Shown here one piece after another: positions 13,690-47,362 of a stretch of DNA of 64,000 bases; position 1 is the stretch's first letter, and each line of letters starts with the position of its first letter. The position numbers were made by a program, and so were the translations under genes. This DNA comes from Thermoanaerobaculia bacterium. Lineage in GTDB: Bacteria; Acidobacteriota; Thermoanaerobaculia; Multivoradales; J023. The notes beneath the pieces were generated by a model. That model was not told where the DNA came from and ran no database searches. It saw only the letters and a program-made list of their open reading frames with translations. The stretch is taken from positions 18,964 to 82,963 of the forward strand of contig DASWIG010000188.1 in NCBI GenBank assembly GCA_036397835.1. Reading direction: 5' to 3'.

Positions 13690-16600
13690 TCACAGGGCCT
13701 CGCAGAACCCTGCAAGGACCGTGTCCTCTTCCGCTTCGCTCAGCAGCGACAACTGCGAAAGGCGCAGGGTGGGGTCGTCGACCATTTTCTGCATGAGCTC
13801 CCGGTAGTGGAGGTGGAGGCGTTCAATTGCGGGCCGGTCGTAGATATCGGTGCTGTACTCCGTAGCGACCACCAATCGGCGGCCCGCCGCCGACACGAAG
13901 AGCGTCAGGTCGAAGTTGGCGGAGACCCGCTCGGTCCCGATCGTCCTCAGGACGAGGCCAGGAACCCGTGTCGGAGGCTGCGGGACGTCTTGGAACGAGA
14001 ACTTGGCCTGGAAGAGGCCCTGGCCTTCTGCCCGACGTCTCCCCTGGAGATCCTCCAGGACTCGCTCATAAGGAACGTCCTGGTGGGCGTAGGCCTCGAG
14101 CGCCACCTCCCGGACGCGTTTCAGGACCTCGCGAAAGCTCGGGTCCCCCGTCAGGTCGCTGCGCAAGACGAGGATGTTGGCGAAATAGCCGATCGTCTCC
14201 TCGAGCTCCCGGCGCCGGCGATTGGCGACGTTGGTGCCGACCGCGATGTCGCGCTCCCCCGTGTAGAGAGCCAAGAGCACCTTGAAGGCCGCGACCATGG
14301 TCATGAAGAGGGTGGCGCCCTCCTGCCGGCTGAGCGCTCGGAGGCTCGCGGCGAGCCGCTCTGAAAGCTCGATCTGCGCCACCGCGCCTCGAAACGTCGG
14401 TCTGGTGGGCCGCCCGCGGGCGCCGGGAAGGTGGAGGATCGGGGGAGCGGTTTTCAACCGCCGGCGCCAGTAGGCCAACTGCGCCTCGAGGACGTCGTGG
14501 CTCAGCCAGCGCCGTTGCCACCGCGCGAAGTCGGGATACTGAACGAGGGCGTCCGACGCCGGGGCGGGCCGGCCCTCGATCCGGGAGCTGTAGAGACGGA
14601 CGATCTCGGCCACCAGGACCGCCATCGACCAGGCGTCGGAGACGATGTGGTGCATCGAGAGGACCACCGCGTGCTCCTCCGGTGCCAGGCGCAAGACGCA
14701 GACTCTGAGCAGAGGAGCGCGAGCGAGGTCGAAAGGGAGATCCAGCAGCTCCCGGATCCGGCGCTGGGACTCCCGGCCGCGGAGAGGCTCGGCCAGGGCC
14801 GTGAGGTCCAGAACCGGCAGCAATGACCTCCATTCGGAAGAGACGATCTGTGCGACCTTGTCGCCGTCCTCGACGAAGGTGGTGCGCAGCGCGTGGTGGC
14901 GGCGGCTCGCCTCGTCGAAGGCGGCGTGGAGAGCGGCAAGGTCCAGGCTCCCTTCGAGGCGTACGAGAGCGGGGATCTTGTAGCCGAGACGGTTCGCGTC
15001 GACCCGGTGGAGGAACCACATGCGCTCCTGGGAGTGGGACAGCGGCATTCGCGTTCCCGGGGGGAAACGCTCGATCGGCTCGGACTCGATGGCCGGGATG
15101 TGCGCCGTGCTTCTCGCATCTTCGATCTCCGCAGCGAATTTCGCCAGCGTGGGCGCCTCAAAAAGGCTCCTCAACGGGAGCTCGATTCCGAAGGTCTCGC
15201 GGACCCGCGATATCACCTGGGTAGCGAGGAGCGAATGGCCGCCGAGAGCGAAGAAGTCGTCCTCGCTCCCGAGCCCTTCAAGCCCCAGGACCTCGCCCCA
15301 GATACCGGCGAGCAGCTCCTCGGCCGGAGCACGGAGAGGCTCGCCGGCTCTGCGTCGGCCGGCCGCGGACCTCGTCAGGAGCTCGGCTTGGATGGAGGCG
15401 CGGTCCAGCTTGCCGTTCGCGGTGACCGGCAGGGCGTCCATCGTGACGATGGTGGAAGGGACCATGTAGTCGGGGAGCTTGCGGGTCAGGAAGCGGCGGA
15501 TTTCCGGGACCTCGGGCACCGCTCCGATCGACGGGACGATGCAGGCGGCGAGGCTCTTGTCCTCGGAGGCATCCGTGACGACGACAGCCACCGCCTCGTG
15601 AACGGCCTCGTGCCGGCACAGGACGTTCTCGATCTCTCCCAGCTCGATGCGAAAGCCTCGGATCTTCACCTGTTGATCGAGGCGTCCCAGGAACTCGAGG
15701 GTTCCTCCCGGCCAGAAACGGCTGCGGTCTCCGGTCCTGTAAAGGCGTCCTCCCCGCCGCTGGCCGAATGGATCCGGGATGAACTTCCGGGCGCTCAACA
15801 CCGGCTCGGAGGCGTATCCCGAGGCCAGGCACTGCCCGCCGATGAAGAGGTCGCCGGGCACCCCGGCGGGGCAGGGCTCGAGCGTTGCATCGAGCACGTA
15901 GTAACAGGCGTTGTCGATCGGCCGGCCGTAAGGAATGCTCCGCCACCGCGGGTCCACGGCGGTGACGACGTGGAAATTCGACCACACCGTGGCTTCGGTG
16001 GCGCCCCCGAGCGCGACGAGCCGGGCTGCGGGAAAAACTCTCCCGAGCCTGGCCGGCAGCGTCGTCGGGACCCAGTCGCCGCTCAGGAAGACGAGCCGCA
16101 GGCACGCCGTGGACAGGCCGTCTTCAGGCAAGAAGGGGATGAGCTGCTGCAACGCCGCCGGCGCCGAGTCCCAGAACGTGACCGGCTCCTGGGCCAGCAG
16201 GCGGGCGAGCTCGGCAGGCTCGCGGACCTCTTCGTTCGAGGCCACCCGCACCGAACCGCCGGCGGCGAGCACGCCGAAGACGTCGTAGACCGACAGATCG
16301 AACGACACCGACGTGACGAAGAGAATGCGGTCCGCCGGCCCCACGTCGAAGGTCCGGTTGACCCATCGGATGAGGTTGATTACCGGACCGTGACGGACGA
16401 CGACGCCCTTCGGCGTCCCGGTCGTGCCCGAGGTGAAGATGGTATACGCGAGGTCCGCAGCGCTCGCCGTCACGGCGGGGCTCCAGGTCGGTCGCCGCTC
16501 CAGGTCGCGGGCACTCGAGACCCGCGCCTTCCCTCCGGACCTTCCCCGGGCCCGTAACGTGCCCTCGGTCGCCTCCGCGTCCGCGACGACCAGGTGCTCG

Positions 16601-18390
16601 AGCCCGAAATCCTCTTCCAGGACTCGTTCCCAGGTCTCGAGCAACGCCGCGCTCGTCACGGCGCAAGTCACGCCGATCGAGCGCAGGATCCAGCGAGCCC
16701 GCTCGACCGGGTAGGTCGGGTCGAGAGGGACGTAAGCCGCCCCCGCTTTGAGAATGCCGAGCAGCGCGACGATCATCGCGGGCGATCGGTCGAGCAGGAT
16801 CGCCACCGGCGCCCCACGGCCGACCCCCAGCGACACCAGGTGATGGGCCAGCCGATTGGCCTCGGCGTCGAGGGCGCCGAAGCTCAGCGTCGACTCGGCT
16901 GTCGTCACGGCGGCCGCGTGCGGCCGCCGGCGTGCCTGCGCTTCGAAGATCTGGTGGATCGAGGTGTCCCCCACGCCCTTCCGGCCGGTATCCTGCCACT
17001 GGACCAGGGCTTGCTGACGCTCAGCCTGCGTCAGCATCGAAAGGTCACGCAGCCGCCCGTCTTGCGCCCGCGGCATGCCCTCGAGCAGCGCCGTGAGGTG
17101 TCTCAGCATGCGATCGATCGTCGCGTCGTCGAAGCGGTCACGAGGATAAAGGGCTCGCAGCGCCAGGCCTGGACCCGGCGTAACCATGAGGCTCAGCGCA
17201 TAGCCCGACTTCGGCTCGTAGCGCACGGAGCCCAGAGCGAGACGACCGGATCGCGCGGACTGCGGCAGCCGTTGGCTCGGCCCCTGGAACCAGGGAACGT
17301 TCTCGAACACCAGGATGCTCTCGAACAGGGGAGCGCGGCCGCGCACCTCGCTCCAGCCCTGAACCTCGGCGAGCGGGCTGTGCTCGTAGCGCCGGATGCG
17401 GAGCTGCTGTTCCTGGAGCTCGCCGAGCCAAGGCAGCACAGGCACCGCCGGTCCGAGGCGTACCCGTACCGGCAGAGTGTTGATGAAGAGCCCGACCATG
17501 GACTCGACACCCGGCAGGTCGTCGGGACGCCCGGATACCGTGGCGCCGAATACGACGTCCCGCTCGCCGCCGCTGTAGCGATGCAGGAGCAAGCTCCAGG
17601 CACCGCGCAAAAGACTGCTCAGGGTCAGCCGGTGTCGCCGCGCCATCCCTTCCACCTCCGCGGTCGCGGCGGCGGACACCTGGCGAGTGGCGCCGCGATA
17701 TCCGCTGCCGCGAAGGTGGTCTCGCTGCGGCACTCGGTCGACGTGGAGCGAGGTGGCCGAGCGCACGCCGGCAAGCTCCCGGCGCCAGAAGGCCTCGGCC
17801 GCGTCGAGCTCCTGCCGGCGCAGCCAGGAAACGTAGTCCCGGTACGGACGCGCCTCGCCGAGGGACGGTGGGCGGCCCGCCCGCAAGGACTCGTAGAGCT
17901 CGTGGAAGTCGCGGAGCACGTGCGAGAGGGACCAGGCGTCCATCAGAATGTGGTGATAGCTCAGTAGGCACTGATACTCCTCGGGAGCGTGGCGGATCAG
18001 CGCGACCCGCAGGAGCGGTGCCTTCGAGAAGTCGAATCCGCGCTTGCGATCCTCTTCGAGGTACCTCCGCAGCCGCTCTTCCCTGGCGGCCGGTTCGCTC
18101 GGCGCCCAGTCATGCGCCTCGAAGAGCAGCCTGACGCGCCGCAGCACGAGCTGGATTGGAGCGTCGCGGCGTCTCCAGGAAAACACCGTCCGCAGCGCGC
18201 CATGACGCCGCAGGTTTTCTTCCCAGGCACGGCGGAACACCTCGACGTCGATGCCACCGGGAGCCGTGACGTCGAAGATCACCTGATCGTGATAGAGCCC
18301 GGCCTCCGGATCGTAGAGGGCATGAAAAAGCATGCCCTGCTGCAGGGGCGAAAGCGGATAGATGTCCTCGATGTTATTCGTCTTCTTCAT
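13690..18390 (-). CDS. NRPS, C(DCL-type N-terminal motif)-A(Cys-like fingerprint)-PCP-C (1566 aa)
   Basis: ATG at 18390 (ATGAAGAAGACGAATAAC = MKKTNN), overlapping the TAA of the upstream gene by 17 nt. N-terminus IEDIYPLSPLQQGMLFH and HHILMDAWS; A core AYTIFTSGTTGTPKGV with SFDLSVYDVFG, LSGDWVP, GGATEATVWS, WRSIPYGRP; PCP FFALGGHSLLATQV; second C LSHSQERMWFL...HHIVSDAWS. The protein ends with a C domain, and the next gene begins directly with an A domain. Confidence 0.85.
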   Translation of the reverse strand: MKKTNNIEDIYPLSPLQQGMLFHALYDPEAGLYHDQVIFDVTAPGGIDVEVFRRAWEENLRRHGALRTVFSWRRRDAPIQLVLRRVRLLFEAHDWAPSEPAAREERLRRYLEEDRKRGFDFSKAPLLRVALIRHAPEEYQCLLSYHHILMDAWSLSHVLRDFHELYESLRAGRPPSLGEARPYRDYVSWLRRQELDAAEAFWRRELAGVRSATSLHVDRVPQRDHLRGSGYRGATRQVSAAATAEVEGMARRHRLTLSSLLRGAWSLLLHRYSGGERDVVFGATVSGRPDDLPGVESMVGLFINTLPVRVRLGPAVPVLPWLGELQEQQLRIRRYEHSPLAEVQGWSEVRGRAPLFESILVFENVPWFQGPSQRLPQSARSGRLALGSVRYEPKSGYALSLMVTPGPGLALRALYPRDRFDDATIDRMLRHLTALLEGMPRAQDGRLRDLSMLTQAERQQALVQWQDTGRKGVGDTSIHQIFEAQARRRPHAAAVTTAESTLSFGALDAEANRLAHHLVSLGVGRGAPVAILLDRSPAMIVALLGILKAGAAYVPLDPTYPVERARWILRSIGVTCAVTSAALLETWERVLEEDFGLEHLVVADAEATEGTLRARGRSGGKARVSSARDLERRPTWSPAVTASAADLAYTIFTSGTTGTPKGVVVRHGPVINLIRWVNRTFDVGPADRILFVTSVSFDLSVYDVFGVLAAGGSVRVASNEEVREPAELARLLAQEPVTFWDSAPAALQQLIPFLPEDGLSTACLRLVFLSGDWVPTTLPARLGRVFPAARLVALGGATEATVWSNFHVVTAVDPRWRSIPYGRPIDNACYYVLDATLEPCPAGVPGDLFIGGQCLASGYASEPVLSARKFIPDPFGQRRGGRLYRTGDRSRFWPGGTLEFLGRLDQQVKIRGFRIELGEIENVLCRHEAVHEAVAVVVTDASEDKSLAACIVPSIGAVPEVPEIRRFLTRKLPDYMVPSTIVTMDALPVTANGKLDRASIQAELLTRSAAGRRRAGEPLRAPAEELLAGIWGEVLGLEGLGSEDDFFALGGHSLLATQVISRVRETFGIELPLRSLFEAPTLAKFAAEIEDARSTAHIPAIESEPIERFPPGTRMPLSHSQERMWFLHRVDANRLGYKIPALVRLEGSLDLAALHAAFDEASRRHHALRTTFVEDGDKVAQIVSSEWRSLLPVLDLTALAEPLRGRESQRRIRELLDLPFDLARAPLLRVCVLRLAPEEHAVVLSMHHIVSDAWSMAVLVAEIVRLYSSRIEGRPAPASDALVQYPDFARWQRRWLSHDVLEAQLAYWRRRLKTAPPILHLPGARGRPTRPTFRGAVAQIELSERLAASLRALSRQEGATLFMTMVAAFKVLLALYTGERDIAVGTNVANRRRRELEETIGYFANILVLRSDLTGDPSFREVLKRVREVALEAYAHQDVPYERVLEDLQGRRRAEGQGLFQAKFSFQDVPQPPTRVPGLVLRTIGTERVSANFDLTLFVSAAGRRLVVATEYSTDIYDRPAIERLHLHYRELMQKMVDDPTLRLSQLSLLSEAEEDTVLAGFCEAL

Positions 18391-21300
18391 CGAAGTCCGC
18401 CTCCGCGAATTCCTCGACCAGGCGTTCGAGCTCGTCGTGGCTCAGGTCGGCTTCCGAAAACTCCGCCGGGGCGTAGGCCGACCCCCCGGCCGCGCCTTCT
18501 TCGATCAGCTCGCCGAGCGCCGCGACGCCTTCCCGCGCCAGCGACTCGATCGTGCCGCGACGAAAGAGCAGGCCGTTGTAGGTCCAATCGACGCGCAGGC
18601 GTCCGGCGAGAACGCACCCGGTCACTTCCAAGGGACGGTTGTAGAGGCCGCGTGGGCCCAACACCTGCACGCCGTCGGCAACGGCGGCAAGCCACCCGGC
18701 CGAGTCCCCGCCCGGCACGTCGAGGTTGCCGAGAAAGCCGACGAGCACGTCGGCCGGCGGCTCGGCCCGCAGGCGCGTGGCGGTCTCGGTTTGCGGACGA
18801 AGGTACCGGAGCTGGCCGTAGAGAAGGCCGTCGCCTTCGAGCGACCTGAGTCGTTGCTTGACCCGCCTTAGCGCCTCGGTCGGCGACGTGTCCGCCCCCA
18901 GCTCCATGCGCAGTGGAAAGACGTTGCCGAAAGGCCCGATCGTCGCCGTGGTGTCAGGGAGGTCGAGGAATCTGCGGGATCGGCTGCCTTCGACGTCGAC
19001 ACGCAGGGCCGGAGTGGCCGACCGGCGTGCCAGCACGCGCAAGACCGCGGCGAGGAGCACTTCCTCGATCTCGGCCCGCAACGTCTCCGCGACCCGGCAG
19101 AGAAGCGTGGACGTGAGCTCCGTGCTCAGGTGAGTCGAAATCGTTCGGAGCGTGACGCCTCGCGTCCGGGAGCGCCGCTCCGGATGGTCGACCAGCAGAA
19201 ACGGCGTCGAGGCCTCTCGGTGCGCCGACTCGGGAAGCTCAGCCGACGGCGAATGACGGCTCACCTGTTCGGCCCAGCGCCGAAACGAGATCGGAGCCGC
19301 CCGTGGCGGGCTCGCTGGCGGAGTGTCCGGCGGACGGCAAACCCGATCGAGTTCCGCCAGCAGGACGGGCCACGAGGCGGCGTCGGCTGCCAGACGATGG
19401 ACGACGAGCAGTAACCGAGAGGGGCGATCGGCCGGCGATTTCACTCGGGCCACGCGCAGCAGAGGCCCCCTCGTCACGTCGAATCCGACCCTCGCTTGCG
19501 CCTCGATCGCCGCGAGAAGGCCGCTCCACCTCCCGTCCGGAACCGACGACACGTCGATCTCGGCAAACGGGCACCCGTTCCTCGAGGAGCTCGCGACTTG
19601 CCAGAAACCGGACACCAGCCTCTCGATGCGAAGCCTCAGAGCGTCATGACGGCGGGCAAGCTCCATCACCGCCCGCGAGATCGCCGCCGCTTCATGGGGG
19701 CGTCTCTCCTCGAGCCAAAGGGCGTGGGCGGCGCGCTCAGGCGCCGTCTGCTCCTCGAGCAGCGCCACTTGAGCGGGCGCCAGCGGCACTGGGCCGAGCG
19801 TGGTGCCTTGGTCGGCCTGGCCCTGCTCGCAGAGGCGAGCGGCGAGGGCGGCGATGGTCTGGTGCTCGAAGACGTGCCGGGTGCTGACCGTCAGGCCGGC
19901 CTCGGCGGCACGGGTGATGAAGAGGATACCCTTGATCGAGTCGCCGCCCATCTCGAAGAAGTTGTCGTGGACGCCGATCTCGTCGACGCCGAGGACCTCG
20001 GACCAGATGCGCGCCAGGGTTCGTTCCACCGCCGTCCGCGGCGCCACGGCGGTTTCCCGCCGGTCTTGGCCGAGCTGGTCGGGGGTCGGCAAGGCGCCGC
20101 GGTCCACTTTGCCGTTGGCCGATAGCGGCAGCTTCTCGAGCGGCACGAAGAGGGCGGGCACCATGTGCTCGGGCAGCTTGCGGCGCAGGAACTCCCGCAC
20201 GCCGCCGATCCACGCCGCGCGGTCGACGGAACCGGAGACGAGCGGAGCCTCCGCTTCCTCCGCAGTCTGGCCGGCCCCCGGCGCACGCACCACGAAGGTG
20301 GGCGACGGGTAGCGCACCCGCGGCGACTGCGCGGACGCAGCCACGCGGCCGCCCACGTGACTGTGGAGCAGGACGTGATCGTCGCCGAGGACCAATCGGC
20401 CGCGCAGGTCCTCGAACGCCAGGTCGCCGATCGGGCACAGACCCAGGCCTAGACCCGACGCCTCGCTCATCAGGAGCTGGCTCATGTAGCCCGCCTCCAG
20501 CAGGCAAAAGTCCCGGGCGCTTTCGCCGTAGAGCGGCCGAATGGCGCGAAGATCGCCGATCAGGAACAGCGCGAACGCCGCCTGGTCGAAGATCGGCTGA
20601 TTGTGGACGCCGTACAGGCTCCGGTCGACGCTCTCCCCCGCCTGCAGCAGGACAAGCTGATGGTCTCTGGCGTGGTGATAGTAGAGGCCGGCGGGGGCGT
20701 CTTCCACCGCGGCCGGCTTGACGTAGAGGTAGGTCTGGACCGGGTACAGATTGCCGGCGGAGGGATAGCGGTACTTCGGCAGCGGGAAATCGCCGAGCCT
20801 CACCTGGCCCAGCGCGCCCATCAGGCGGCTCAGAGCCGAGAAGGGGACGGTCTCGCCGAGGAACTCGCGATGGCTGCGGCGCGTGCCGAAACCTCGGGCC
20901 AGGGTCTCGTCGGCGTCGAGTTGGAGGAGCTGAAGGCCCTGGCGATCGTCGAGGTCCCGGCGCAAGCCCGGTTCGCTGAGCTTGAAGTCCAGGCTGCCGA
21001 GCGCGTCCAGGGGGCCCACCGGGCTGGCCGCAGGAGCCGCCGCGGACGATCCGGGCCCCGGCCCCCGCGGTCCCAGACGGGATGCGCAGGAGGCCGCGTC
21101 GGGGGCTGTGGCCGAATCCCGAGATTCGGCGAATTCGGGCACCAGGTAGGCAGCCAGTCGCTGCCGCGAACGCGTCCCGACCGCGGTCACTACGGCCGAT
21201 CGGACCAGCGGGTGAGCCTCGAGAGCCGCCTCGACCTCGCCCAGCTCGATCCGATGTCCCTGGATCTTGACCTGGAGATCCTCGCGGCCCAGGAACTCGA

Positions 21301-24300
21301 TCGTCCCGTCGGGGAGATAGCGGCCCAGGTCCCCGGTCCTGTAGAGGCGCTCGCCACTCCGCGGTTCGGCCACGAACCTGCTCGCCGTCGTCGGCGCGTC
21401 TCTCCAATACCCGAGCGCCAGACCGTCCCCGCCGATGTAGAGCTCCCCGGGGACCCAGACCGGACGCGTCCTGAGGTCTTGGTCGAGCACGTGGAAGCGC
21501 TGATTTCGCATCGGCCGTCCGTAGGGGATGCTCGTCCACGACGGCGGCACCTCTCGGACCGGGTAGAGGATCGACCAGATCGACGCTTCCGTCGCTCCTC
21601 CCAGGCTCACCACTTCGGCGTTCGGACAGAGCCTGCGAATCCGATCCGGCAGATCCACCGGTATCCAATCCCCTGAGAGGAGGACCCGCCGTAGGGAAGT
21701 CAGATCGGCCCCCGGAGACCGCGAAGCCCATTCGACCAGCATCTCCATCAACGCCGGCACCGTGTTCCACACCGTCACGCCGTGGGAGGCGATCAACTCG
21801 GCCCAGCGCTCGGGGTCCCGCGCCGCCGCCGGCTCCGGCAGCACCAGCGCGCCACCGGCGGCCAGGAGGCCGAAGACGTCGTAGACCGACAGGTCGAACG
21901 ACAGCGACGAGAGCCCCAGCACCCGGTCGGCGGGACCGATTCCGAAGCGCTCGTTGACGTCGTGCACGGTGTTGAGCGCGCCCCGGTGATCGATCATCAC
22001 GCCTTTCGGCTTGCCGGTCGAGCCCGAGGTGAAGATGACGTACGCCAGGTCGCGCGGCCCGCAGGCCGGCGGCGCGCCGCTTCCTTGGGCAGTCCCGGCC
22101 GCCGGATCGTCCGCGGTCACCGCGACGAGCTCGACACCCGGCGGCCATGCCAACTCTCGGGTCAGGCCGCCTTGCGTCACCGCCACCGAAATCCGGCCGT
22201 TCTCGAGCAGGAATTGGCGACGCTCGTCGGGCACCCGGGCGTCGATCGGCAGATAGGCCGCCCCGGCCTCGAGGATTCCCAGAACCGCCACCACCTGTTC
22301 CCATCCCTTCTCCATCACCACCGCCACCAAGCGGCTCGGCCCGACGCCCAGGCCCCGCAGGCGCTCCGCCAGGCAGCGCGCGCGCCGCGCCAGCTCGCCG
22401 TAGCTCAGGCGGACGCCGTCGGCCAGGACCGCGAGGTCTTCAGGCGACCGCGCCGCTCGGAGCATAAAGGGTGTCTGCAGGAGGTGCCGCGGAGCCGGCG
22501 CCGCGGTGGCGTTGGCCTGGTCCAGGACGGCCAGTTGCTCCTCGGGCACGCGGGCCGGCCTGCGCAGGCTCCACGTCGATTCCTGGTCCGCCAAGCGCAG
22601 CAGTAGGTCGTGGAAGGCGGCGAACATCGCGTCCAACAATCCGTCCGGGAAGAGGTCCTCGATCGCGTCCCAGTTGAAATGAAGTCCTTCGGGGCCTTCC
22701 GAGACCTGGTGATCGAGCCACACCTGGGGCGTTTGCGAGATGCCGTAGACCGAGCGGCCGTCCTGGCCCGCCGAGACCGTCTCCTCGGAAGCGCCGACCG
22801 CCGCCGGACCGCCGGTCTGCGACGGCTCCTCGCCGTGGAACAACGTGCTGGTGAAGACCACCGGCATGGTGGCGCTGGCGGTGCGGCCCCGGGCCCGTGC
22901 CCACTCCCGGAGGACGCTCACCCCGTTGAAGTAGCGGTGCTCAAGGTCGAGCCAGAGCTGCTCCTGAACCGTCCGGGCAAAGCGCTCGAACGTCTTGCCT
23001 CCTCGGGCGTCGACCTGGAGCAGGGTGAGAGAGGTGAAGTCTCCGACCACCTCGTTGACCTGGGGGTGGAGCGGCAGACGGTTGAAGGTCGTGACGTTGA
23101 TCGTCATCTCGGCCGACTTGCTCCACGTCGCCAGCCCGTCGGCGAACGCCGCCAGGAGAAGACCGGAGGGCGTCAGGCCGGCGTCCGCCGCCCGCTTCTT
23201 GAGGCGCGACCACCTACCGCGTTCGAGGACGGCGCGGCGGCGGCTGAAGCGGGGCCGGGTGAGCGTCCCGGGCCGGCGGGCGAGCGGCAGCTCCGGGGCC
23301 GGCGGCAGGCTCTCGAGGCGATCGAGCCAATATCGCCGCGAGCGCTCGTAGGGCGGCGAATCCCGAAACGCGGCCTCGGCGGCGACGTAGTCGCGAAACG
23401 TCACGTCGAGAGGCGGGAGCTCGGCGTCGGGGTCCTGGTAGAGCCGCATCAACTCGCGGTAGAGGATGAGCGAGCTCCAGGCGTCGATCAGCAAGATGTC
23501 GCTGCTCACGTGCAGCCGAACGCCTTCCTCGAGCCGGGTCGCCCTGAGCTCGAAGAGAGGCCAGCGATCGGCCGGCAGGACTTGGTGCGACATGCGCTCG
23601 CGGATCGCCTCGAGCTCGGAGGCCACGACGGCAGGCGGCTCGCCTCTCAGGTCGGCGACGGCGATCCGGTAGGGAGGGACGTCCCGCAACACCCGCTGGC
23701 GACCGTCCGCCAGGACCACCGCCCGCAGCATGTCGTGGCGCTCGATCAACCGCTGCCAAGCCCCTTCGAGACGTTGGAGGTCGAGGCTTGCCGACTGGAT
23801 CTCCATGTAACCGTGGGAGGCCACGTTGCCGAGCTCGAAAGCGTCGCCGCGGCCGATCCAATAGGCCTGTTGAACTTCGTTCAGACTGAAGGGCTCGAAG
23901 CGCCGCGCCCGATCCGGCTCGATCGTGGGGAGGGCGGCCGGAAGCGACGCGCTGCGTTCTTGCTCTGCGCGCATCTGATCGACGGCGGCGGCCAGGCCGG
24001 CGACCGTCGGAGCCTGGAAGAGCCGACGCAAGGGGACGTCGACTCCGAACGTCTCGGACACCCGGTTGACGAGCTGGATCGCCGCCAGGGAGTTGCCGCC
24101 CAGGTCGAAAAGGCTTTCGTGGGCTCCGACCCGCTCACGCCCCAGGATCTCCTGCCAGATCACGGTCAGCTCTCGCTCGACGGGAGTGGTCGGCCCGGCG
24201 TCGCGCCGGGTCTTCGGCGCGGCTTCCTCGGGCGCCGGCAATGCCCGCCGGTCGATCTTGCCGTTGGGGGTCAGCGGAAGCGTCGCGAGCGCGACGAACG

Positions 24301-27300
24301 TCGCCGGCACCATGTACTCGGGGAGGCGCCGCGCCAGGTAGCTCCGGAGGTCCGAATCCGCCGGCGCGGGCTCGTCACGCGGCACCAGGTAGGCCACCAG
24401 CCGCCGCCGGCTGCGCTCGGGGCCCATCGCGACGACGGCCGCCGAGCGCACGTCCGGGTGGCTCTCAAGAGCCGCTTCGACCTCGCCCAGCTCGATCCGA
24501 TGGCCCTGGATCTTGACCTGGTGGTCCTCGCGGCCAAGAAACTCGATGGTCCCGTCAGGAAGGAACCGGCCCAGATCGCCCGTCCGGTAGAGCCGTCGTC
24601 CGCTCGGCGAAGCCACGAAGCTTCGCGCCGTCTTGGCGGCATCGCGCCAGTAGCCCCGCGCCAGGCCCACCCCTCCGATGAAGAGCTCGCCGATCACCCA
24701 TACCGGGCGCGGAGCCAGGAAGGCGTCCAAGACGTGAAATTCCTGGTGGCGCATCGCTCGCCCATAGGGCACGCTGTTCCAGGACGCCTCCACCTTCCCA
24801 ATCGGGTACAGGATCGACCAGATCGAGGCCTCCGTGGCGCCGCCCAAGCTCACCACCTCGGCCCGCGGGCACACCGCCCGGATCCGATCCGGCAGATCCA
24901 CCGGAATCCAATCCCCCGAGAGCAACACCAATCGCAACGAGCTCAAGTCCACGTCGTGTCGGCCGTCCGCCCACTCGATCAGCATCTCCATCAGCGCCGG
25001 GACCGTGTTCCAGACCGTGACTCGCCGCGCCGCGATCAGCTCGGCCCAATGCCCGGGATCCCGCAGCGCCGCGCCCTCCGGCAAGACCACGGCTCCGCCT
25101 GCCGACAGCAAGCCGAAGACGTCGTAGACCGAGAGGTCGAACGACAGAGACGAGAGATCGAGCACCCGGTCGCCCGGACCGATGCGAAAGCGTTCATTGA
25201 CGTCGAGGACCGTGTTGAGGGCGGCACCGTGCTCGATCATCACGCCCTTCGGCCGGCCCGTCGAGCCGGAAGTGAAGATCACGTACGCCAGCTCGCCGGA
25301 ACCTCCCGGTTCGCGGCGGACAGGTTCCTGGAAGCTTGACGGATCCTGATCGCCCTCTTCCGTCACCACCAACGGCGACACGGCGGTCGGCCATTCCGGC
25401 GACTTGGCGAGCCACGGCTGCGTCACGGCGACGGACACCTCGGCGCTGGCCATCAGCTCGGCGCGGCGGCGTCGCGGCAAGGCCGGATCGATCGGCAGGT
25501 AGGGGGCGCCGGAATCCAGGATGGCCAGCACCGCCACGACCTGCTCCCAACCCTTGTCCATGACGACCGCGACCGGACGCTCGGCCGCCGCGCCCGCGCG
25601 GCGCAAGCGCGCGCTCAAGATTCGAGCGCGGCGCTCCAGCTCTCCGTAGCTCAGCTCCGTGAACGGCTCCATTCCGCCACGCAGTGGAGCGACCACCGCC
25701 GTCCGGTCCCGGTTCACCGCGGCCTGGGCCAGGACCGGCTCATGAAGCCTCCCGCTACCGGCGGCGTGCGGGATGGCCCCGCCATGGACACGCGCCCACG
25801 GCGCGTCGGCGGGCACCATCCGGCCGGCCAGATCCGGACGGCTGGCTCGCCACGCGAGGTCGTCCTCCGCCAGAGATTCGAGCAGGTCCCGGTAAGCGGT
25901 CAGCATGGCGTCGAGAAGGCCCGCTGGGAACAGCTCTTCGACCGCGTCCCAGTTGAACCGCAGCGCCCCCTCCTGCTCCCAGACCTGGTGATCCAGCCAC
26001 ACCTGGGGCGTCTGGGAGACGCTGTAGACCGACTCGCCGGAAGCTCCCCGCCGCTCGTCCCCGGGACGGTCAGGAGTCGCCACCGCGGGCATCGTCAAGG
26101 TGCTGGTGACCACCACGGGCATCAGAGCGCCCGGGGCGCGGCCCTCGAGCCGCGCCAGCTCGCGCAGCACCCGCACCCCGCTGAAGTATCGATGATCGAG
26201 ATCCTCCCAGAGCCGTGCCTGGATCGCCCGGGCCCGCTCCTCAAACCGCGCCCCCTGCCGGAGGTCCACCTCCAGCAGCGTCAGGGACGTGAAGTCCCCC
26301 ACGATCGAGTCGACCTCGGGGTGAATCGGAAGCCGGTTGAAGAGCGTCAGGTTGAGGGTGAAGCGAGGATTGCGCGACCAGGTTGCCAGGACCTCGGAGA
26401 AGGCGGCCAAGATCAGGGCCGAGGACGTCAGGCCGCAGGGCGCGGCCCGTTGCTTCAAGCGCTTCCATGCCGGAGCCGCGAGGCTCGCGGAACGGCGGAG
26501 GAACCGAGGGCGCTCCACGGACTCGGGGGCCCGGGCCAGCGGGAGCTCCGGCGCCGGGGGCAGTCCGGCGAGGCGAGCCATCCAGTAGTCGCGCGAGCGC
26601 CGGTAGAGCGCGGAGCCCTCGAGCTGACGCTCGGCGAGGACGTAATCTCTGAACGACAGATCGGGAGGCTGCAGCCGGAGGGTGGGGTCGGCCGCCAGCC
26701 GGGCGTAATCGCGGGCCAGGATGCGGAAGCTCCAGGCGTCCCAGATCAGCGCGTCGCAGCTCAGGTGGACCCGTGCGCGCCCTTGCGGCAGCAGGGAGGC
26801 CTTGACCTCGAAGAGCGGCCATCGGTCGGTGGCGAGCACTTGGTGCGACAGGGTGCTCCGCATCCGCGCGAGCTCACGCTCCCGCTCCTCGGTCCGCATC
26901 CGGCGGAGGTCGCGAACCTCGATCTCGTAGGCGGGCACGTGCTCGAGGATCCGCTGGGTGCCGTCGGCGAGGACGACCATCCGGAGCATTTCGTGGCCCG
27001 CGACCAGGCGGTTCAGAATGCTCTCCAGGCTCGCCATCTCGACTCCCTGGGCTTCGATCTCCAGGTAGCTGTGGGTCGCGACGTTGCCCAGCTCGAAAGC
27101 GGCCTGGCGGCCTATCCAGTAGGCCTGCTGGACATCGTTCAAGGGGAACGGCTCGAAGCGCCGCGCCGGATCGGGCTCGACCCGGGGCAGCGCCTCCGGC
27201 ACCACGGGCTCGATCTCCAGGGCCTTCTCGCGCAGGATCTCTTCGGCGAGCCCGGCGACCGTCGAGGCCTGGAAGAAGACCCTGAGTGGCAACCTCGCGT

Positions 27301-30300
27301 GGAAGCGCCGCTCAACCCGGTCGAGGAGCTGCGTCGCCAGGAGAGAGTGCCCCCCGAGCATGAAGAAATCGTCGTCGACTCCCAGCTCGTCGAGCTCCAA
27401 GACCTCTCTCCAAAGGGCGGCCATCGCCTCTTCCGTGGGGTTGCGGGGCGCCACGAGGCCGGCGGCGGTCCGCGGACGCCGCTCCTCGGCCAACGGCGTC
27501 GTTGCGATCGGACGGCGTTCGGCGATCATCGAAGCCACCGGCAGCGTGTAGCCCGAAAACCGCTCGACGATCAGGGCGTGACGCTGTGCTGGACTGAGCA
27601 GCGGGAGCTCCATGATCGGCCTGTCCGGCTCCGACAGCGCGGCGACCACCAGAGCCTCGAGGTGCCCCAGCATTCGCTTCGTGGTGGTGGCGGCGAAGAG
27701 GTCGATCCGGTAACCCAGCTCCAGGGCGACGCGACCTTTTCGTTCCGCCGCCGCCAGGGTGAGATCGAATTTCTCCGTCCTCGCGGCGACGTCGAGAGGC
27801 TCGATACGCAGCCCTGGCACCTGCGCCTCGGCCTCCCGCAGCGGGCTGCTGGCGAAGAGGAACATGACCTGGAAAAGAGGAGAGTGGCTGAGGCTTCGTC
27901 GCGGCGAGAGCTCCTCCACCAGCCGTTCGAAGGGCAGGCTCTGGTGCGCGAAACCGTTCAGGGCCTCGCGGCGCACGTGATCGACCAGGGCCTCGAACGA
28001 CGTGACTTCGGCGATGATGCTGCGCAATACCAGGGTGTTGACGAAGAAGCCGATGAGCCCCTCGAGCTCGATGCGGTCGCGGCCGCTGACCGGTGTACCG
28101 ACACAGATGTCCTGCTGGCCCGTGTAACGAAGGAGAAGCGCCTTGAAAGCGCTCATCAGGGTCATGAATAGGGTCGCTCCCCGTATCCGGCTGAACTCCC
28201 GCAGCCTGTCGGACAGCGCCGTGGAGAGCACTCGGGTCGAGCTGGCGCCGCGATACCGCTGCACGGCGCCGCGCGGGAAGTCGGCGGTCAGCTCGAGCGT
28301 CGCCGGCGCACCTTCCAAGCGCTTCTTCCAGTACTCGAGATCGGCCGCGATCCCTTGGCCTGCCAGCCAACGCCGTTGCCAGTGGCCGAAGTCGAGGTAC
28401 TGGATCGGCAGCTCCGGCAACGGAGAGGGACGGCCGGCCGACCGCGCCGCATAGAGGGTCATCGCCTCCCGCGTCAGAACCTCCATCGACCAGCCGTCGC
28501 TGACGATGTGGTGAAGGGTGAGGATCAGCGCGTGATCGTCGGGACTCAGCTCCAGCAGGAAGAGCCGCAGGAGAGGGCCTCGGGCTAGATCGAACGGCCT
28601 CAGCGACTGGATGGCCGCGATCCTCCTTGCTTCCGGCTCACGCGCCGCCGCGATCAGGCCGGACAGGTCCACGCGCGGCAGCGATACCCTGGCAACGGCG
28701 GAGATCTCCTGGATCGGGCGCCCCTCTCGCGAGGAGAAGACCGTGCGCAGAGTCTCGTGACGCCAAACGATCTCGGCCAGGCTGCCCGCGAGCGCCTCGA
28801 CGTCGAGACCGCCGCGCATCCGCAGCGCGACCGGGATGTTGTAGACCGCGTTGCCCGGCTCAAGCTGATCGAGGAACCACAGCCGCTGCTGTGCGAAGGA
28901 AAGAGGCTTTTCACCTTCCCGAGGGACGACCTCCATGGCCGGCAGGTCGGAGCGCCGGCCCGCCCGGTTCCCGCGATCGATCAGGCCCGCGAGCTGCGAG
29001 ACCGTCGGCGAGGTGAAGACCTCCTGGAGCGACACCTCGGCGCGAAAGGCCACGCGAATCCGCGACACCAGACGAGTCACCAACAGCGAGTGGCCTCCGA
29101 GATCGAAGAAGCTGTCGTGAATGCCGACTTTGTCGACTGCGAGCAGCTCGGCCCAGAGACCGGCCAGGATCCTCTCCGTTTCACTGGCCGGAGCCACGTG
29201 TCGGCGCCTCAGGAGCTTGCGCGCCTCCTCAAGGCTCGGCAACCGGCGGGTGTCGACCTTGCCGTTCAGAGTCAACGGCATCCGTCGCAGATGGACGAAG
29301 AGGTTGGGTATCGTGCCCTCGATCAGAAAACGCTTGAGGTGGCGGCGCAAATCCGCCTGGTCGAGCATCTGCCGGGACACGTAGTAACCGAGCATCACTT
29401 GGCGGCCCGCCCCTTCCTCGGTCACCACGACCGCGGCGTCGCGGATCTCCGGATGACGGATCAGGGCGAGACGGATCTCGTTGAGCTCCACCCGGAAGCC
29501 GTGGAACTTGACCTGGTTGTCCATCCTGCCGAGGAAATCCACGCCGCCTTCCGGAAGCAGCCGGGCGTAATCGCCGGTGCGGTACATCCGCATGCCGCCG
29601 CGCCGGTCGAACGGGTCGCAGACGAACTGCTGCGCCGTCGTCCCCGGACGCGACAGGTAACCCTGGGCCAACCCCGGCCCGGCGAGAAACAGCTCGCCGC
29701 TCATGTTCTCCGCCACCGGCTGCAGCGCGCCGTCCAGCAGGTAGATCCGGGCCCCGGCACCAGCCCGGCCGATCGGCACGAAGGCCCGGTCGTCCTCCTC
29801 GGGCTCGAAGCGGTGGATCATGCAGCCGACGGTCGCCTCCGTCGGACCGTATTCGTTGTAGATCTCGATCTGTCCGCCGAAGCCCTCGTGGACGGACCGG
29901 GCCAGGCGGCTCGTCAGAGCCTCGCCGCCCACCACTAGGCGCCGGATTCCACATGCCTCCCGGCGATGCTCCGTGAGCAGCGCCAGGTGGCTCGGCGTCA
30001 GCTTCAGCACGCTGGGGCGCCGCTCGGAGAGAATGCGCGGGAAGGGGGACTGGCCGTCAATCCAGGGATGAACGAGGATCGCTCGGCCGGCCGCGAGCGG
30101 CGTCAGGACGGAGGTCACGGTGAGGTCGAAGGCGAGCGAAGAATGGAGGACGAAGTCGAGGTTCTCGCCGCTCAGGTAGACCTCCATTGCCCATTCGACA
30201 TAGTTCGCCAGCGCGGCGTGCGAAACCGCCACTCCCTTGGGCTGACCGGTAGAGCCGGAGGTATGGATCACATAGGCGAGGTCGGCCCCGCCGAGCTCCG

Positions 30301-31489: not shown

Positions 31490-31824
31490 GGCGACAGGCT
31501 GTGTAGCGACAGGCTGTGTAGCGACAGACCGTGTATCGACCCCCAAGTCGTCTCCTTCATGCCTGGGCCTCCGGATACACCGACAACGTCGCCGGCCGTC
31601 CTCGTGGCCGCCGACGGACCCACGCTGACCATCAGTGGCCCCTATCCTACCCGGCCGTCTTTCCGGGCGCAAGAGCGCCCCCGGCCTCCGCGCTGAATCG
31701 GCGCCGTCGGGCGGACTCGCGCTTCGCCTTCGACGCGATCCCTGGTAGCCTTGGGCCTCCGAAGCGCTCGGCGGGCTGGGGACCCGCAGCCGGCCCTCGG
31801 GGCGCTCTGGGTTGGTAGCGCCGG
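31490..31824. promoter_or_regulatory. Divergent intergenic/promoter region between the giant NRPS operon (-) and the glycosyltransferase-like gene (+)
   Basis: ~335 nt with no credible coding frame (both overlapping track ORFs are R/P/G-rich). Contains the tandem 15-mers and a second direct repeat, TGGGCCTCCG, at 31564-31573 and 31752-31761. No -35/-10 consensus assigned. Confidence 0.5.
31492..31536. repeat. Three tandem 15-bp direct repeats: CGACAGGCTGTGTAG (31492-31506), CGACAGGCTGTGTAG (31507-31521), CGACAGACCGTGTAT (31522-31536), plus a partial fourth copy CGACCCCC
   Basis: Read directly from the sequence. Lies immediately upstream of the putative GTG start of the giant NRPS, inside the divergent intergenic region. 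Confidence 0.9.
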
Positions 31825-32895
31825 ATGCCGCCAACCGGTCCTTCGCAGGTCATGACTCTGGCGATCGTCTCCACCGTCCGCGATGCCGGCAAGGTGCTCG
31901 ATTCCTTCATTCGGTACCATGTTGCCATAGGCTTCGATCGCCTGTTCATCATCTTCGACGACCCGTGCGACCCCATGGCCGAGAGTGCCCGGAGATACCC
32001 GCAGGTCACGGCTCTCACCAACGACGACGGTCTGCGGCGGCGTTGGAAGACCCGGAGGTCCTACGCGAGGGTAGGCCCCTTCATCGACGACCACGTGATG
32101 TCCAGGCAGATCTTGAACGCCGAGGTCGCCATCGAGATGGCGCTCGAGATGGGCCTGGAGTGGATTCTCCATATCGACGTGGACGAGCTCTTCCACTCCC
32201 AAGAAGCCCCCAAGAAGCATTTCGAATCGCTGGCGGAGCGTGGCATCGACTTCGTGACTTATCCCAACCACGAAGCCGTTCCGGAAGCGTTCAAAATCGA
32301 CGATTACTTCAAGACGGTCACGCTCTTCAATAAGAACGCTTACACGCTTGAAGCCGGGCAAGCTCGCGGTCGGCGCCGCTTCCTCTACTACGGCAACGGC
32401 AAATCCGCGGCGCGCCTTTGCCGGAACCTGATGGCAAAGAGCGTTCACGAGTTCATGCTGTCTCGAGAGCGGAGCTGGGCCTACCGGAACTTCCTTCACC
32501 TCTTCTTGCCCTATCGGAAGATTCCGCTGGTCAAACCGCGGGTGTCGTTCGGCGGATCGTGGCGCAAGAGGGGGAGCGGGGGAAGCAGGGCTGCGTCGCA
32601 AGATGTCCACAAGCTGCCGGTGATCCTCCATTACGCCTGTTGCGGATTCCAGCACTTCTGGCAAAAATACAAGACCCTGGGATCGTTTCCCGACCGTTGG
32701 TTCGGCCGCGTCGAGCTTTCGCGACAGGTGCCCTTTCACGTGCAAGCGCGAAACGTCGTGATGACGCAAGGGCGGGAGGCCGCCAGAAAGCTGTACCAGG
32801 AAGTAGTCATGGCTGGCGGCGAGCAGGAAACGCGTGACCGCCTCGAGGCCGGCACCTTCTGCCGCATTGTCGAGCCCTCTCGCCTCTTGGCCTGA
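31825..32895 (+). CDS. GT-A fold glycosyltransferase-like protein (GT2/GT92-DUF23-like; DxD-type motif); low-GC gene
   Basis: 356-aa ORF with ordinary (non-low-complexity) composition; ATG at 31825 (alternative ATG at 31852 giving MTLAIVSTVRD). N-terminal LAIVSTVRDAGKVLDSFIRYHVAIGFDRLFIIFDDPCDP resembles the nucleotide-sugar-binding start of GT-A enzymes, and LEWILHIDVDELFH is a DxD-type motif. GC ~55-58% versus ~72% in the flanking megasynthases, with different codon usage (AAA, AAT, TTT, TTC and AAG codons). Confidence 0.55.
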   Translation: MPPTGPSQVMTLAIVSTVRDAGKVLDSFIRYHVAIGFDRLFIIFDDPCDPMAESARRYPQVTALTNDDGLRRRWKTRRSYARVGPFIDDHVMSRQILNAEVAIEMALEMGLEWILHIDVDELFHSQEAPKKHFESLAERGIDFVTYPNHEAVPEAFKIDDYFKTVTLFNKNAYTLEAGQARGRRRFLYYGNGKSAARLCRNLMAKSVHEFMLSRERSWAYRNFLHLFLPYRKIPLVKPRVSFGGSWRKRGSGGSRAASQDVHKLPVILHYACCGFQHFWQKYKTLGSFPDRWFGRVELSRQVPFHVQARNVVMTQGREAARKLYQEVVMAGGEQETRDRLEAGTFCRIVEPSRLLA

Positions 32896-32919
32896 GGCGG
32901 AGCCTCGTTAGGTCTACTA

Positions 32920-32950
32920 GGACGTGACTTGCGCACGCTCGGTCACGTCC
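32920..32950. terminator. Perfect 9-bp inverted repeat GGACGTGAC-(13 nt)-GTCACGTCC between convergent stop codons (32895 and 32969); candidate bidirectional terminator hairpin
   Basis: Stem 32920-32928 pairs with 32942-32950; loop 32929-32941; no U-tract. Confidence 0.45.
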
Positions 32951-32968
32951 AGCACGGGCGAAGTGCTT

Positions 32969-47100: not shown

Positions 47101-47362
47101 CCGGCAGGCGCAGCCCGGGCGGGCAGTGGAAACGGCTCCGCAGGACCTCGTGCCGCGTCACGACGTCTTGCAGGACGCTGCGCAGCCGGGACACCTCGAG
47201 TGGCCCGCGGACGTCGATCTCGAGCCGGGCAGGACAACAGGCCGGGAGAGCACCCGACTCCGGCTCGGCCCCGGCCGCCAGCGCCCACGCCCGCCTCTGT
47301 TGCGGCGACAGGCGGTATCCTCGTACAGGCTCCGGACGATCCACCGATTCCACCGGTTGCAT
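44156..47362 (-). CDS. NRPS, C-like (degenerate, lacks the HH motif)-A-PCP, 1068 aa
   Basis: ATG at 47362, 15 nt after the TauD-like stop. N-terminal ~450 aa has C-domain C1/C2-like motifs (RLSPQQRRAW, VTRHEVLRSRF) but LELTALQADSRGLRQL where HHxxxDG should be. A core LAYVMFTSGSTGEPKGV, PCP FFDLGGHSMRAILI, acidic tail DEEVRDQLADEA. Confidence 0.85.
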   Translation of the reverse strand: MQPVESVDRPEPVRGYRLSPQQRRAWALAAGAEPESGALPACCPARLEIDVRGPLEVSRLRSVLQDVVTRHEVLRSRFHCPPGLRLPVQIVTEAVVELTVADAAETRKSPEPAVGSAIRARLIRLAPERWTLELELTALQADSRGLRQLAAEVAAAYGGGVRQGEEPMRYVDLAEWQNELAHGDDAEQGRRFWANRRPGDTRWLRLPLEGTGGSEPPELRFTSVTLGEGVAAATDRLAERSGVSPAAVILAAWATLLGRLTGRREVPVATCYDGRSYEGLERVIGPLERYLPLRLDCGPRRRFREVAGQAFELTEELYDWQEFYQPQDDVFLPWAFLFEEGETSWRGGEASFSLTHHSALTERFVVRLAVFRRAAGPACSGALDAELAYDAGRLTPDSARRMAERLSTLLAAAVLDPDRFPEDLDVVSPAEREVIEVWSVSSPEVPGRRPADAVRLFLERVEHGPDRIAVICAGQHVSYRRLAAVAGDVACRLRRRGVGPETLVGICLDRSPDMVAGVFGVLMAGGAYVPLDPAYPRERNLRVAELARPALILTRGRLRDALPAPAQVLRLDEDCRDEDREERAPSPEADPQSLAYVMFTSGSTGEPKGVMVSHANLAHYLDSLPEALGVGGDDVFLHTASFAFSSSVRHLLVPLSRGAALVLATDEERSDPKRLLGLARNTAATVMDTVPSLWRGCLKVLGSPAAAGYRPRLALSTGEVLAAEVPREWERRFEDPPRFVNMYGQTETAGMVALHPVPRRFEDPDGMPLGRPIRGVAVFVLDRRSRLSPIGCTGEIHVAGGAPGRGYLRRPALTAERFVPDPHSGRHGSRLLRTGDLGFFDGGGCLRFVGRLDHQVQVRGHRVEPGEIEAALGAHPDVELCAVRARDSGSGEIELAAYVARGVGRDPEPRSLRAFLEERLAPYMVPSRFLVLDELPMTPNGKVDRLALPELEEAAARPYVAPSTELERQLAEIWAAVLAVERVGLHDDFFDLGGHSMRAILIMSRLQERYGVDLPAFRLFEVRTVAQLALLVEELQLADASDEDLAEALQELAELSDEEVRDQLADEA

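Follow-up and report, generated by a model that had tools for sequence, protein, structure and literature searches.

Why should a nonribosomal peptide synthetase (NRPS) subunit that is predicted to make a thiazole, a residue with no stereocentre left to invert, end in an epimerisation (E) domain, and why should that domain lack the residues with which E domains work? The question is raised by a 64,000-nucleotide stretch of DNA from a Thermoanaerobaculia bacterium (assembly GCA_036397835.1, contig DASWIG010000188.1, positions 18,964 to 82,963 of the forward strand), the whole of which is called the window below. The domain concerned, designated N5-E, is the last one of N5, a protein of 4486 amino acids (aa) encoded on the minus strand by the open reading frame (ORF) 18374..31834. 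An initial annotation of the DNA had pointed to the span 18420-19800, which corresponds to aa 4012-4472 and thus to nearly the whole domain, and had quoted a set of motifs, all of which were found in this ORF where it had placed them. Our answer, to which we give a probability of about 0.7, is that N5-E would be a catalytically dead E-fold scaffold, forming the donor half of a split E-COM-C unit (COM, communication-mediating; C, condensation) and kept for docking to the next subunit, N6. The features of the region are collected in Table 1.

By sequence and by predicted fold N5-E is an E domain, and neither an ordinary C domain nor an X-domain. A phmmer search against the PDB returned E2 of PvdL (2.6e-41) followed by the E domains of BacC (4.8e-33), TycB3 (6e-23), GrsA (6e-21) and TycA (3e-19), the glycopeptide X-domain being only marginal (5e-4). 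When an AlphaFold2 (AF2) model of the domain (pLDDT 74.8, pTM 0.77) was compared with the PDB by Foldseek, the best 13 matches were all E domains (TM-scores 0.68-0.77); the first ordinary C domain stood at rank 14, and the X-domain was 46th. Local phmmer scores were bimodal and N5-E fell with the E domains, as the sole E-type member among 15 condensation-superfamily domains of the seven NRPS and polyketide synthase (PKS) proteins compared. Two further C-family domains of N8, the protein at the left end of the window (one heterocyclisation (Cy) domain and one C domain), gave no E-type match. Pfam assigns N5-E to the generic Condensation family only, as it might an ordinary C domain or a terminal release domain that had been misread as E. 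We rejected that explanation on the PDB and local phmmer results, TIGR01720 and Foldseek, and regard it as practically out of the question: the best matches in sequence and fold are all E domains, TIGR01720 (the NCBIfam marker for the C-terminal part of E domains) matches with 67 bits, below its cutoff of 74.2, the S-W order of the His motif, the GGDSI motif of the preceding carrier protein and a COM tail are all present, and an overlapping gene carries the assembly line further. The comparison of C and E profiles suggested in the initial annotation therefore came out on the side of an E domain.

The catalytic residues of this E domain are lost. In the ungapped HMMER alignment HHLVVDGVSW stands over HRLAADAASW and EGHGRE over EGSRSR; MAFFT inserts one gap and still pairs the His of EGHGRE with Ser and its Glu with Arg. 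In addition RTVGWFT is changed to ATIGPFG and FNYLG to VGFLGN. Mutagenesis bears out the earlier statement that catalysis depends on the second His and on the Glu of EGHGRE. In TycA, H743A lowered the formation of D-Phe-Pro by 99% and E882A by 99.5%, and the double mutant was dead; GrsA H753A was inactive, and the two residues act as an acid/base pair (PMC8905534).

How unusual this is can be judged from a background of 344 E domains, drawn from earlier matches and from the 150 proteins that ranked highest in an exhaustive HMMER search. As that search was ranked by summed multi-domain score it yielded megasynthetases and not the nearest relatives of N5-E, and it was used as a background set. 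The second His was present (HH) in 326 of the 335 domains with complete motifs and absent from nine (2.7%). Among 326 full-length E domains 89 alignment columns were at least 80% conserved, and N5-E keeps 55 of them (62%), fewer than any of the 326 (median 93%, minimum 66%). In other words it is the most degenerate E domain in a comparison of 327. Its 34 losses cluster in the E-specific pocket (H146R, H283S, G284R, E287R, W300P, T302G, N365G, Y366F, P332E, G337L), and core hydrophobic and Gly/Asp positions are retained. N5-E is thus probably without epimerase activity, and no active E domain with HR at the second-His position was reported in the open-access literature that we searched. Degenerate E domains of the background are enriched at protein C-termini (6 of 9 versus 62 of 308; Fisher p=0.004). 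P0027 is the only one of the dead E domains in this background that comes after a Gly-type adenylation (A) domain. P0015, also from the background, combines HR with an intact EGHGR.

The module ahead of N5-E is of the thiazole-forming type, in agreement with the initial annotation. It comprises a Cy domain, an A domain with a code for cyclising Cys, an oxidase (Ox) domain inserted in the A domain, plus one peptidyl carrier protein (PCP). From end to end the Ox can be aligned with BmdC, the thiazoline oxidase of bacillamide (1.2e-32), and the motifs RRSxRxF and YPSAGxLYP are retained. GGDSI is typical of PCPs working with E domains, and the other three PCPs of N5 read GGHSL or GGNSL. A Cy-A(Cys)-Ox-PCP module predicts a thiazole donor without a C-alpha stereocentre. 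A thiazole-4-carbonyl thioester lacks a C-alpha hydrogen, and on it epimerase chemistry would be neither possible nor needed.

What N5-E may do instead is suggested by its junction with the next subunit. The start of the N6 gene overlaps the stop of N5 by 17 nucleotides, and the overlap is also present in JGI's gene calls for a metagenome fragment of identical sequence. The first domain of N6 (N6-C1) is a C domain of the DCL type, as had been proposed: all ten of its top PDB matches are C domains with an E domain as donor, led by McyB (1e-108), PvdL C3 (4e-88), BacC C5 (4e-83), SrfA-C (3e-74) and TycB1 (4e-69), LCL domains lying at about 1e-19. On the crystallised BacC chain, in which E, COM and C are joined in cis, N5-E up to its residue 474 maps to residues 9-471 and N6 from its residue 5 to 475-916. 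On the PvdL-type NCBIfam model PRK05691 the corresponding intervals are 2780-3247 for N5-E and 3252-3703 for N6-C1. The adjacent mapping on both units argues that N5-E and N6-C1 together make up one E-COM-C unit, cut in two within the COM region. The segment YAPAEFSEADLSHDELERLVEEF near the end of N5 aligns with the cis-COM regions of PvdL and BacC, with the C-termini of GrsA and TycA and with the sequence TPSDF..AGL...LD.L of relatives. No docking type other than COM is known at E/C interfaces, and COM strictly co-occurs with E domains (Diecker et al. 2025, PMC12402864); it contacts both domain bodies extensively, as a scaffold (PMC12402864). A docking or scaffolding role is therefore probably the function of N5-E, being the one best supported. 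The initial annotation had likewise seen a docking partner in N5-E and had named the acidic tail of N5 as its docking element; the role stands as the best supported one, but the conserved element is the COM-donor segment just before the tail. The acidic extension may add electrostatic affinity for the Lys-rich N-terminus of N6 (MKK...).

A scan of genomes with the N5-E protein found no close homologous cluster. The corresponding protein search gave an identical metagenome fragment (P0001/L003), all other matches being at most 36% identical. Searching with the segment from Ox to N5-E, however, revealed P0161, encoded at L004 on a 237-kb metagenome contig and colinear with N5 over 875 aa at 38% identity. 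Its domains run Ox-Ox-A(C-terminal part)-PCP(GGDSVKGV)-E, the last domain being a dead E domain with the His motif VHPLIADRESLP and with EGHGRE and FNYLG lost. The protein ends in a COM tail, YMPTDFPIAGLNQQELDELMESF; 16 nucleotides further on lies a gene that starts with MMKQANVEDIYPLSPLQEGMLFH, contains HHALMDAWS and encodes C-A-PCP-TE (TE, thioesterase). P0161 was the only one of 78 Ox-containing relatives with an E-fold domain after the PCP, 74 of the 78 stopping at the PCP. The closest degenerate relatives of the first search, P0010 (HP) and P0011 (HR), have C-termini of the form TPSDF.EAGL...LDDLLA.L and are followed by a DCL-type C domain. An alignment of five sequences of this family shows no variation at the first His, the Asp or Arg139, and R, P, P, R and E at the catalytic position. 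Fixed structural residues with a varying catalytic position are the pattern expected of selection for fold rather than catalysis, and the presence of the same Ox-to-PCP-E/DCL junction at 38% identity in P0161 argues that N5-E is held by selection and is not decaying. The Ox domains of P0161 (L004:17-3517) are in tandem (aa 78-303 and 346-562, each scoring about 196 bits against the window Ox), an arrangement unusual for NRPS thiazole modules.

Dead E domains of similar kind also occur outside Ox modules. The signature L-x-[AV]-D-A-A-S-W-P-x-L-[LV] was back-translated to a DNA pattern and scanned over genome and metagenome collections. It matched the window once, with 0 matches expected by chance, and in all picked out 19 loci, of which 12 held confirmed E-type domains, three held eroded E-like remnants and four were unrelated (L007, L014, L019 and L022, dropped as chance matches or matches in other proteins). 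The second His is missing in 11 of the 12 confirmed domains (R, D, L, P, E, P, P, A, S, P, P). They come from Gemmatimonadota, Acidobacteriota and actinomycetes, with Longimicrobiaceae, Gemmatimonadales, Thermoanaerobaculia, Actinokineospora, Pseudonocardiaceae and Streptomyces as sources. In Gemmatimonadota six loci carry a complete PKS module ending in a dead E domain, KS-AT-KR-DH-ACP-E (ketosynthase, acyltransferase, ketoreductase, dehydratase, acyl carrier protein and E), followed by a gene that opens with a DCL C domain. The domain at L005 matches PvdL E at 1e-71 and reads HR. L008 has the order KS-AT-ACP-Cy-A(Cys-type)-PCP-E without an Ox in cis, again followed by DCL, and L012 and L023 have PCP-E followed by DCL. 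Counting these, a dead E domain with a DCL gene next was seen at L004, L001, L002, L005, L006, L008, L009, L011, L012, L018 and L023. A motif table showed that the EGHGRE His, the RTVGW Trp and FNYLG are absent from all family members. The family conserves a COM-donor segment, [T/A]P.[D/E]F...L....L..L, which in the window lies ahead of the acidic tail, and the family signature H-[not H]-L-x-x-D-A-A-S-W-P is also that of N5-E.

The remnants at L010, L015 and L021 (Streptomyces genomes and a metagenome contig) read H[D/A/E]LAVDAASWP, have no Pfam call and were left outside the counts. L010 matches only the N-terminal half of PvdL E (5e-11), and each of the three has a Condensation domain next to it in cis. 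They may represent a further stage in the reduction of dead E domains.

These relatives bear on two claims of the initial annotation which we do not uphold. N5-E had been called vestigial; the junction is kept at 38% identity in P0161 and the derived motifs are common to the dead-E family, which speaks for a maintained domain. Its death had been ascribed to the removal of the stereocentre by Ox. That causal account is too strong, for the signature is shared by relatives that come after PKS modules, after a Cy module lacking Ox in cis or after a Ser-type A domain. Their occurrence in contexts without Ox indicates that the dead state probably predates Ox or is independent of it.

The course of events at the junction would then be as follows. 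The Cy-A-Ox-PCP module would build a thiazole-4-carbonyl thioester on its PCP, and N5-E would do no chemistry on it. The body of N5-E and its COM-donor segment would bind the COM-acceptor N-terminus and the body of N6-C1, so that the docked N6-C1 would be held beside the PCP and the thiazolyl chain could be handed on. N5-E was probably not inactivated in situ; it would derive from an older, widespread lineage of dead-E adaptors at subunit ends.

It might be objected that the domain is simply decaying. The C-A part of an ancestral C-A-PCP-E module would have been replaced by Cy-A-Ox, the E domain would drift neutrally and docking would be left to the terminal peptide alone. That N5-E is the most degenerate of 327 E domains, that a thiazole donor makes epimerase chemistry pointless and that the TIGR01720 score is under the cutoff would all be expected of such a relic. 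We nevertheless consider it unlikely. N5-E has a full-length open frame and a confident predicted fold (pTM 0.77), the junction is kept at 38% identity in P0161, a distance at which neutral sequence would have been erased, and only the catalytic position varies in a family that has kept its first His, Asp and Arg139 unchanged. Moreover, many lineages have dead E domains at the ends of subunits, ahead of DCL domains, and COM contacts the body of the E domain in published structures (PMC12402864). Another suggestion would be that N5-E acts like an X-domain and brings a trans-acting tailoring enzyme, for instance an oxygenase, to the PCP-bound intermediate. The X-domain motif is HRxxxDD, to which the HR..D of N5-E bears a superficial likeness. 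The cluster also contains a stand-alone dioxygenase gene of the TauD family (47378-48610), and C-fold domains that recruit partners are documented (PMC10510592). The similarity to X-domains is, however, marginal (5e-4 against 1e-41 for E domains; Foldseek rank 46), N5-E does not lie in a terminal module beside a TE, and the TauD gene lies at a distance of 27 kb, adjoining another dead C-like domain. Pfam scans of the large ORFs of the window, the small ones not having been scanned exhaustively, found no P450, and the sole constant neighbour of the family across very different clusters is the DCL C domain. An X-domain was accordingly rejected on sequence, fold, position and neighbourhood, and we hold recruitment of this kind to be very improbable.

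We think equally little of the chances that N5-E has a non-canonical activity, such as epimerising the thiazoline before its oxidation or catalysing another reaction, for example through Arg4147. New chemistry has arisen repeatedly in the C superfamily, and P0015 with its HR and intact EGHGR warns that His to Arg alone is no proof of inactivity. In N5-E, by contrast, both members of the acid/base pair are gone together with W300, FNY, G284 and other pocket motifs. No substitute residue is conserved in the family (R, P, P, R, E, D, S, A and L occur), and oxidation to the thiazole would wipe out any stereochemical outcome.

Several points weigh against the scaffold reading itself or against placing N5-E in the family. 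Both the loss of activity and the docking role are deduced from sequence. The confidence of the AF2 model is low exactly at the replaced loops (residues 285-290 and 334-342), and the model is silent on the geometry of the active site. The Ox domain looks intact, and we have assumed its activity and its timing relative to transfer. The counts obtained with the DNA pattern are not independent, as the six Gemmatimonadota loci are related and the pattern selects the signature itself. L013 follows a Ser-type A domain and L017 one with an unassigned code. A strict rule that a dead E domain always follows an achiral donor was dropped because of L013 and most of the background dead E domains, and an achiral donor is a tendency only. 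As to descent, a family HMM (hidden Markov model) built without the window exceeded an equal-sized HMM of intact E domains by 7.9 bits on N5-E, but with the signature masked the difference became -9.4 bits; all of 80 held-out intact E domains favoured the intact-E model by at least 77 bits (mean 204). The identity of N5-E to family members (24-35%) and to intact E domains (28-34%) does not discriminate between them. In a neighbour-joining tree of p-distances N5-E joins P0161 and then P0010/P0011, on the longest branches, so that the tree is indicative only. A derived E1 variant (...APAQ...AAHAxxL) is common to N5-E, L006 and P0009.

Taken together these results are suggestive of, but not decisive for, a membership of N5-E in the dead-E family by common descent. 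The wider idea would be that N5-E belongs to an ancient, phylum-spanning class of dead E-fold adaptors, marked by H-x-L-x-x-DAASWP and a COM-donor tail, which plug donors that are unable to be epimerised, or ought not to be (among them thiazolyl-PCP and the acyl-ACP of complete PKS modules), into COM-dependent DCL C domains. We offer this tentatively, at slightly less than even odds.

Table 1. Positions in the window of N5-E, the module that precedes it and its junction with N6
Feature	Positions	Strand	Remarks
Cy domain of last N5 module	22580..23917	-	aa 2640-3085; Pfam Condensation, motif scan, alignment of window C-family domains
Cy DxxxxD motif DILLIDAWS	23474-23500	-	motif scan
A domain core	21155..22534	-	aa 3101-3560; code DLYNLSLIW, a cyclising-Cys code
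Ox (thiazoline oxidase dependent on flavin mononucleotide, FMN), inserted in A domain	20336..20929	-	Pfam Nitroreductase 4e-18; RRSHREF, YPSAGNLYP
PCP with E-type signature GGDSIKGI	19841..20047	-	Ser at aa 3966; motif scan, Pfam
GGDSIKGI	19925-19948	-	aa 3963-3970
N5-E domain	18470..19825	-	E-fold, predicted dead active site; with tail 18377-19825
GPVPLAPAQ	19769-19795	-	start motif of N5-E
HRLAADAASW	19370-19399	-	Arg codon 19394-19396, aa 4147
EGSRSR	18974-18991	-	position of EGHGRE
TIGPFGNVFPL	18911-18943	-	motif of N5-E
COM-donor-like segment YAPAEFSEADLSHDELERLVEEF	18407..18475	-	aa 4454-4476
Poly-acidic extension AEADFDEEDE (tail ending in EEFAEADFDEEDE before the stop)	18377..18406	-	aa 4477-4486; not conserved in relatives
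N6-C1, DCL-type C domain opening the next subunit	17011..18390	-	aa 1-460; HHILMDAWS intact, 17929-17955
COM-acceptor N-terminus of N6, MKKTNNIEDIYPLSPLQQGMLFH	18322-18390	-	start of ORF 13690..18390

The window as a whole (69% G+C) represents one hybrid NRPS/PKS assembly line on the minus strand, with at least eight megasynthase genes and the TauD-family gene. Pfam, motif scans and local phmmer gave the order of N5 as A(Asn-type)-PCP-C-PCP-Cy-A(Cys)-PCP-Cy-A(Cys)[Ox]-PCP-E, and the line goes on past N5 through three more genes. In the longest ORF of N5 about 345 residues precede the first A domain and match no domain (the region concerned is 30800-32969, minus strand). Between the stop of N4 (32969) and the farthest possible start of N5 (31834) there is about 1.1 kb; a 375-aa ORF located there (31642-32769) has no Pfam match. 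Within N5 (aa 973-1555) no A domain separates a C domain (aa 973-1421) from the PCP directly after it (Ser motif at aa 1494), and this module would have to be loaded in trans. N4 itself (32969-44137, minus strand) has a second C domain (aa 1098-1545) that is DCL-like (LTPMQQGLYVH; 246 bits to N6-C1) with no E domain before it. It may be a dual E/C domain, or else belong to the DCL clade and serve without epimerisation.

N8 (1-8565, minus strand) fills the left end of the window with an unbroken frame; its ATG at 8565 overlaps the stop of N7 and the frame runs off the window. Its order, KS-AT-ACP-Cy-A(Cys-type)-PCP-C-A..., includes the third heterocyclisation module of the line. N3 (44156-47362, minus strand) begins with a C-like domain that lacks the His motif (..ELTALQADSRG..) and of which Pfam covers only residues 16-307. 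This second dead C-fold domain of the cluster lies directly downstream of the stand-alone TauD-family dioxygenase gene (47378-48610, minus strand). The two resemble the pairing of an interface domain with a beta-hydroxylase in siderophore NRPSs. In N1 (56400-63869, minus strand) the second A domain (aa 1472-2296; Gly-like code DIL/QLGVIW) is interrupted by a luciferase-like monooxygenase domain (aa 1721-2042), as in MtaG and MelG. At the Gemmatimonadota locus L006 the gene after the dead E domain also has C and Bac_luciferase domains, and the occurrence of Bac_luciferase in both hints that the cluster of N1 and L006 share building blocks.

The significance of dead E domains lies in what they may tell about COM docking. 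Work on the reason why COM needs an E domain is still in progress (PMC12402864). A scaffolding role of E is supported by natural junctions that keep an E body, COM and a DCL partner although epimerase chemistry is impossible or lost, such as those with the thiazole donor of N5 and with the PKS acyl-ACP donors of the Gemmatimonadota relatives. If the idea of a wider adaptor class is true, they amount to a natural experiment in which COM junctions need the body of the E domain but not its chemistry, and they would constitute a general device for docking PKS or heterocycle-forming modules to NRPS modules, functionally parallel to the X-domain. In practice, attention to the DAASWP signature prevents false predictions of D-residues, as pipelines call such domains E. 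A possible gain for engineering would be a portable, chemistry-free cassette of dead E and COM with which donors other than amino acids could be linked to DCL modules.

Among known systems the canonical E-COM-C junctions (TycA/TycB1, GrsA, BacC modules 4-5, PvdL E2-C3) share with the window the fold, the GGDSI PCP, the COM segments and the DCL partner; they differ in that the catalytic His, the Glu and most of the pocket motifs are replaced in N5-E. The X-domain (Tcp12; PDB 4TX2, 6M7L) is similar in its C/E-fold, its degenerate His motif and its non-catalytic, protein-recruiting role. It sits, however, between PCP and TE in the last module and its partners are trans-acting P450s, whereas the partner of N5-E would be the next NRPS subunit. 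Modules of the Cy-A-Ox-PCP kind (EpoB, ArzO and BmdB/BmdC types) agree with the window in having a Cy domain, a Cys-type A domain whose FMN oxidase is either inserted or a partner, and a PCP. The Ox-containing relatives mostly end after the PCP, unlike the window protein and P0161 with their E-fold domains.

In the open-access literature that was searched we found neither an E domain in a thiazole/Ox module nor a bacterial ACP-E junction, and these two contexts for a dead E domain appear undescribed; inactive E domains after Gly modules have already been published. In LgrA (F-A-PCP-C-A(Gly)-PCP-E) the E domain follows a Gly module and is regarded as inactive (PMC10510592). Compared by description only, it resembles N5-E in being an inactive E-fold domain after an achiral residue, at the end of a subunit whose chain passes to the C domain of the next subunit, and differs from it in the donor, which is Gly in LgrA and would be a thiazole made by Cy-A-Ox here. 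DpnS3 and ArtG of the diperamycin and aurantimycin NRPSs have an inactive E domain after a Gly module, followed by a DCL C domain (PMC10888640). On the same descriptive level the likeness is close: these domains lack HHxxxDG, follow an achiral residue, are kept in two related clusters and precede a DCL domain. There, however, E and C are joined in cis and the donor is Gly, whereas in the window the junction would be in trans, with a COM-type split, and the donor a thiazole.

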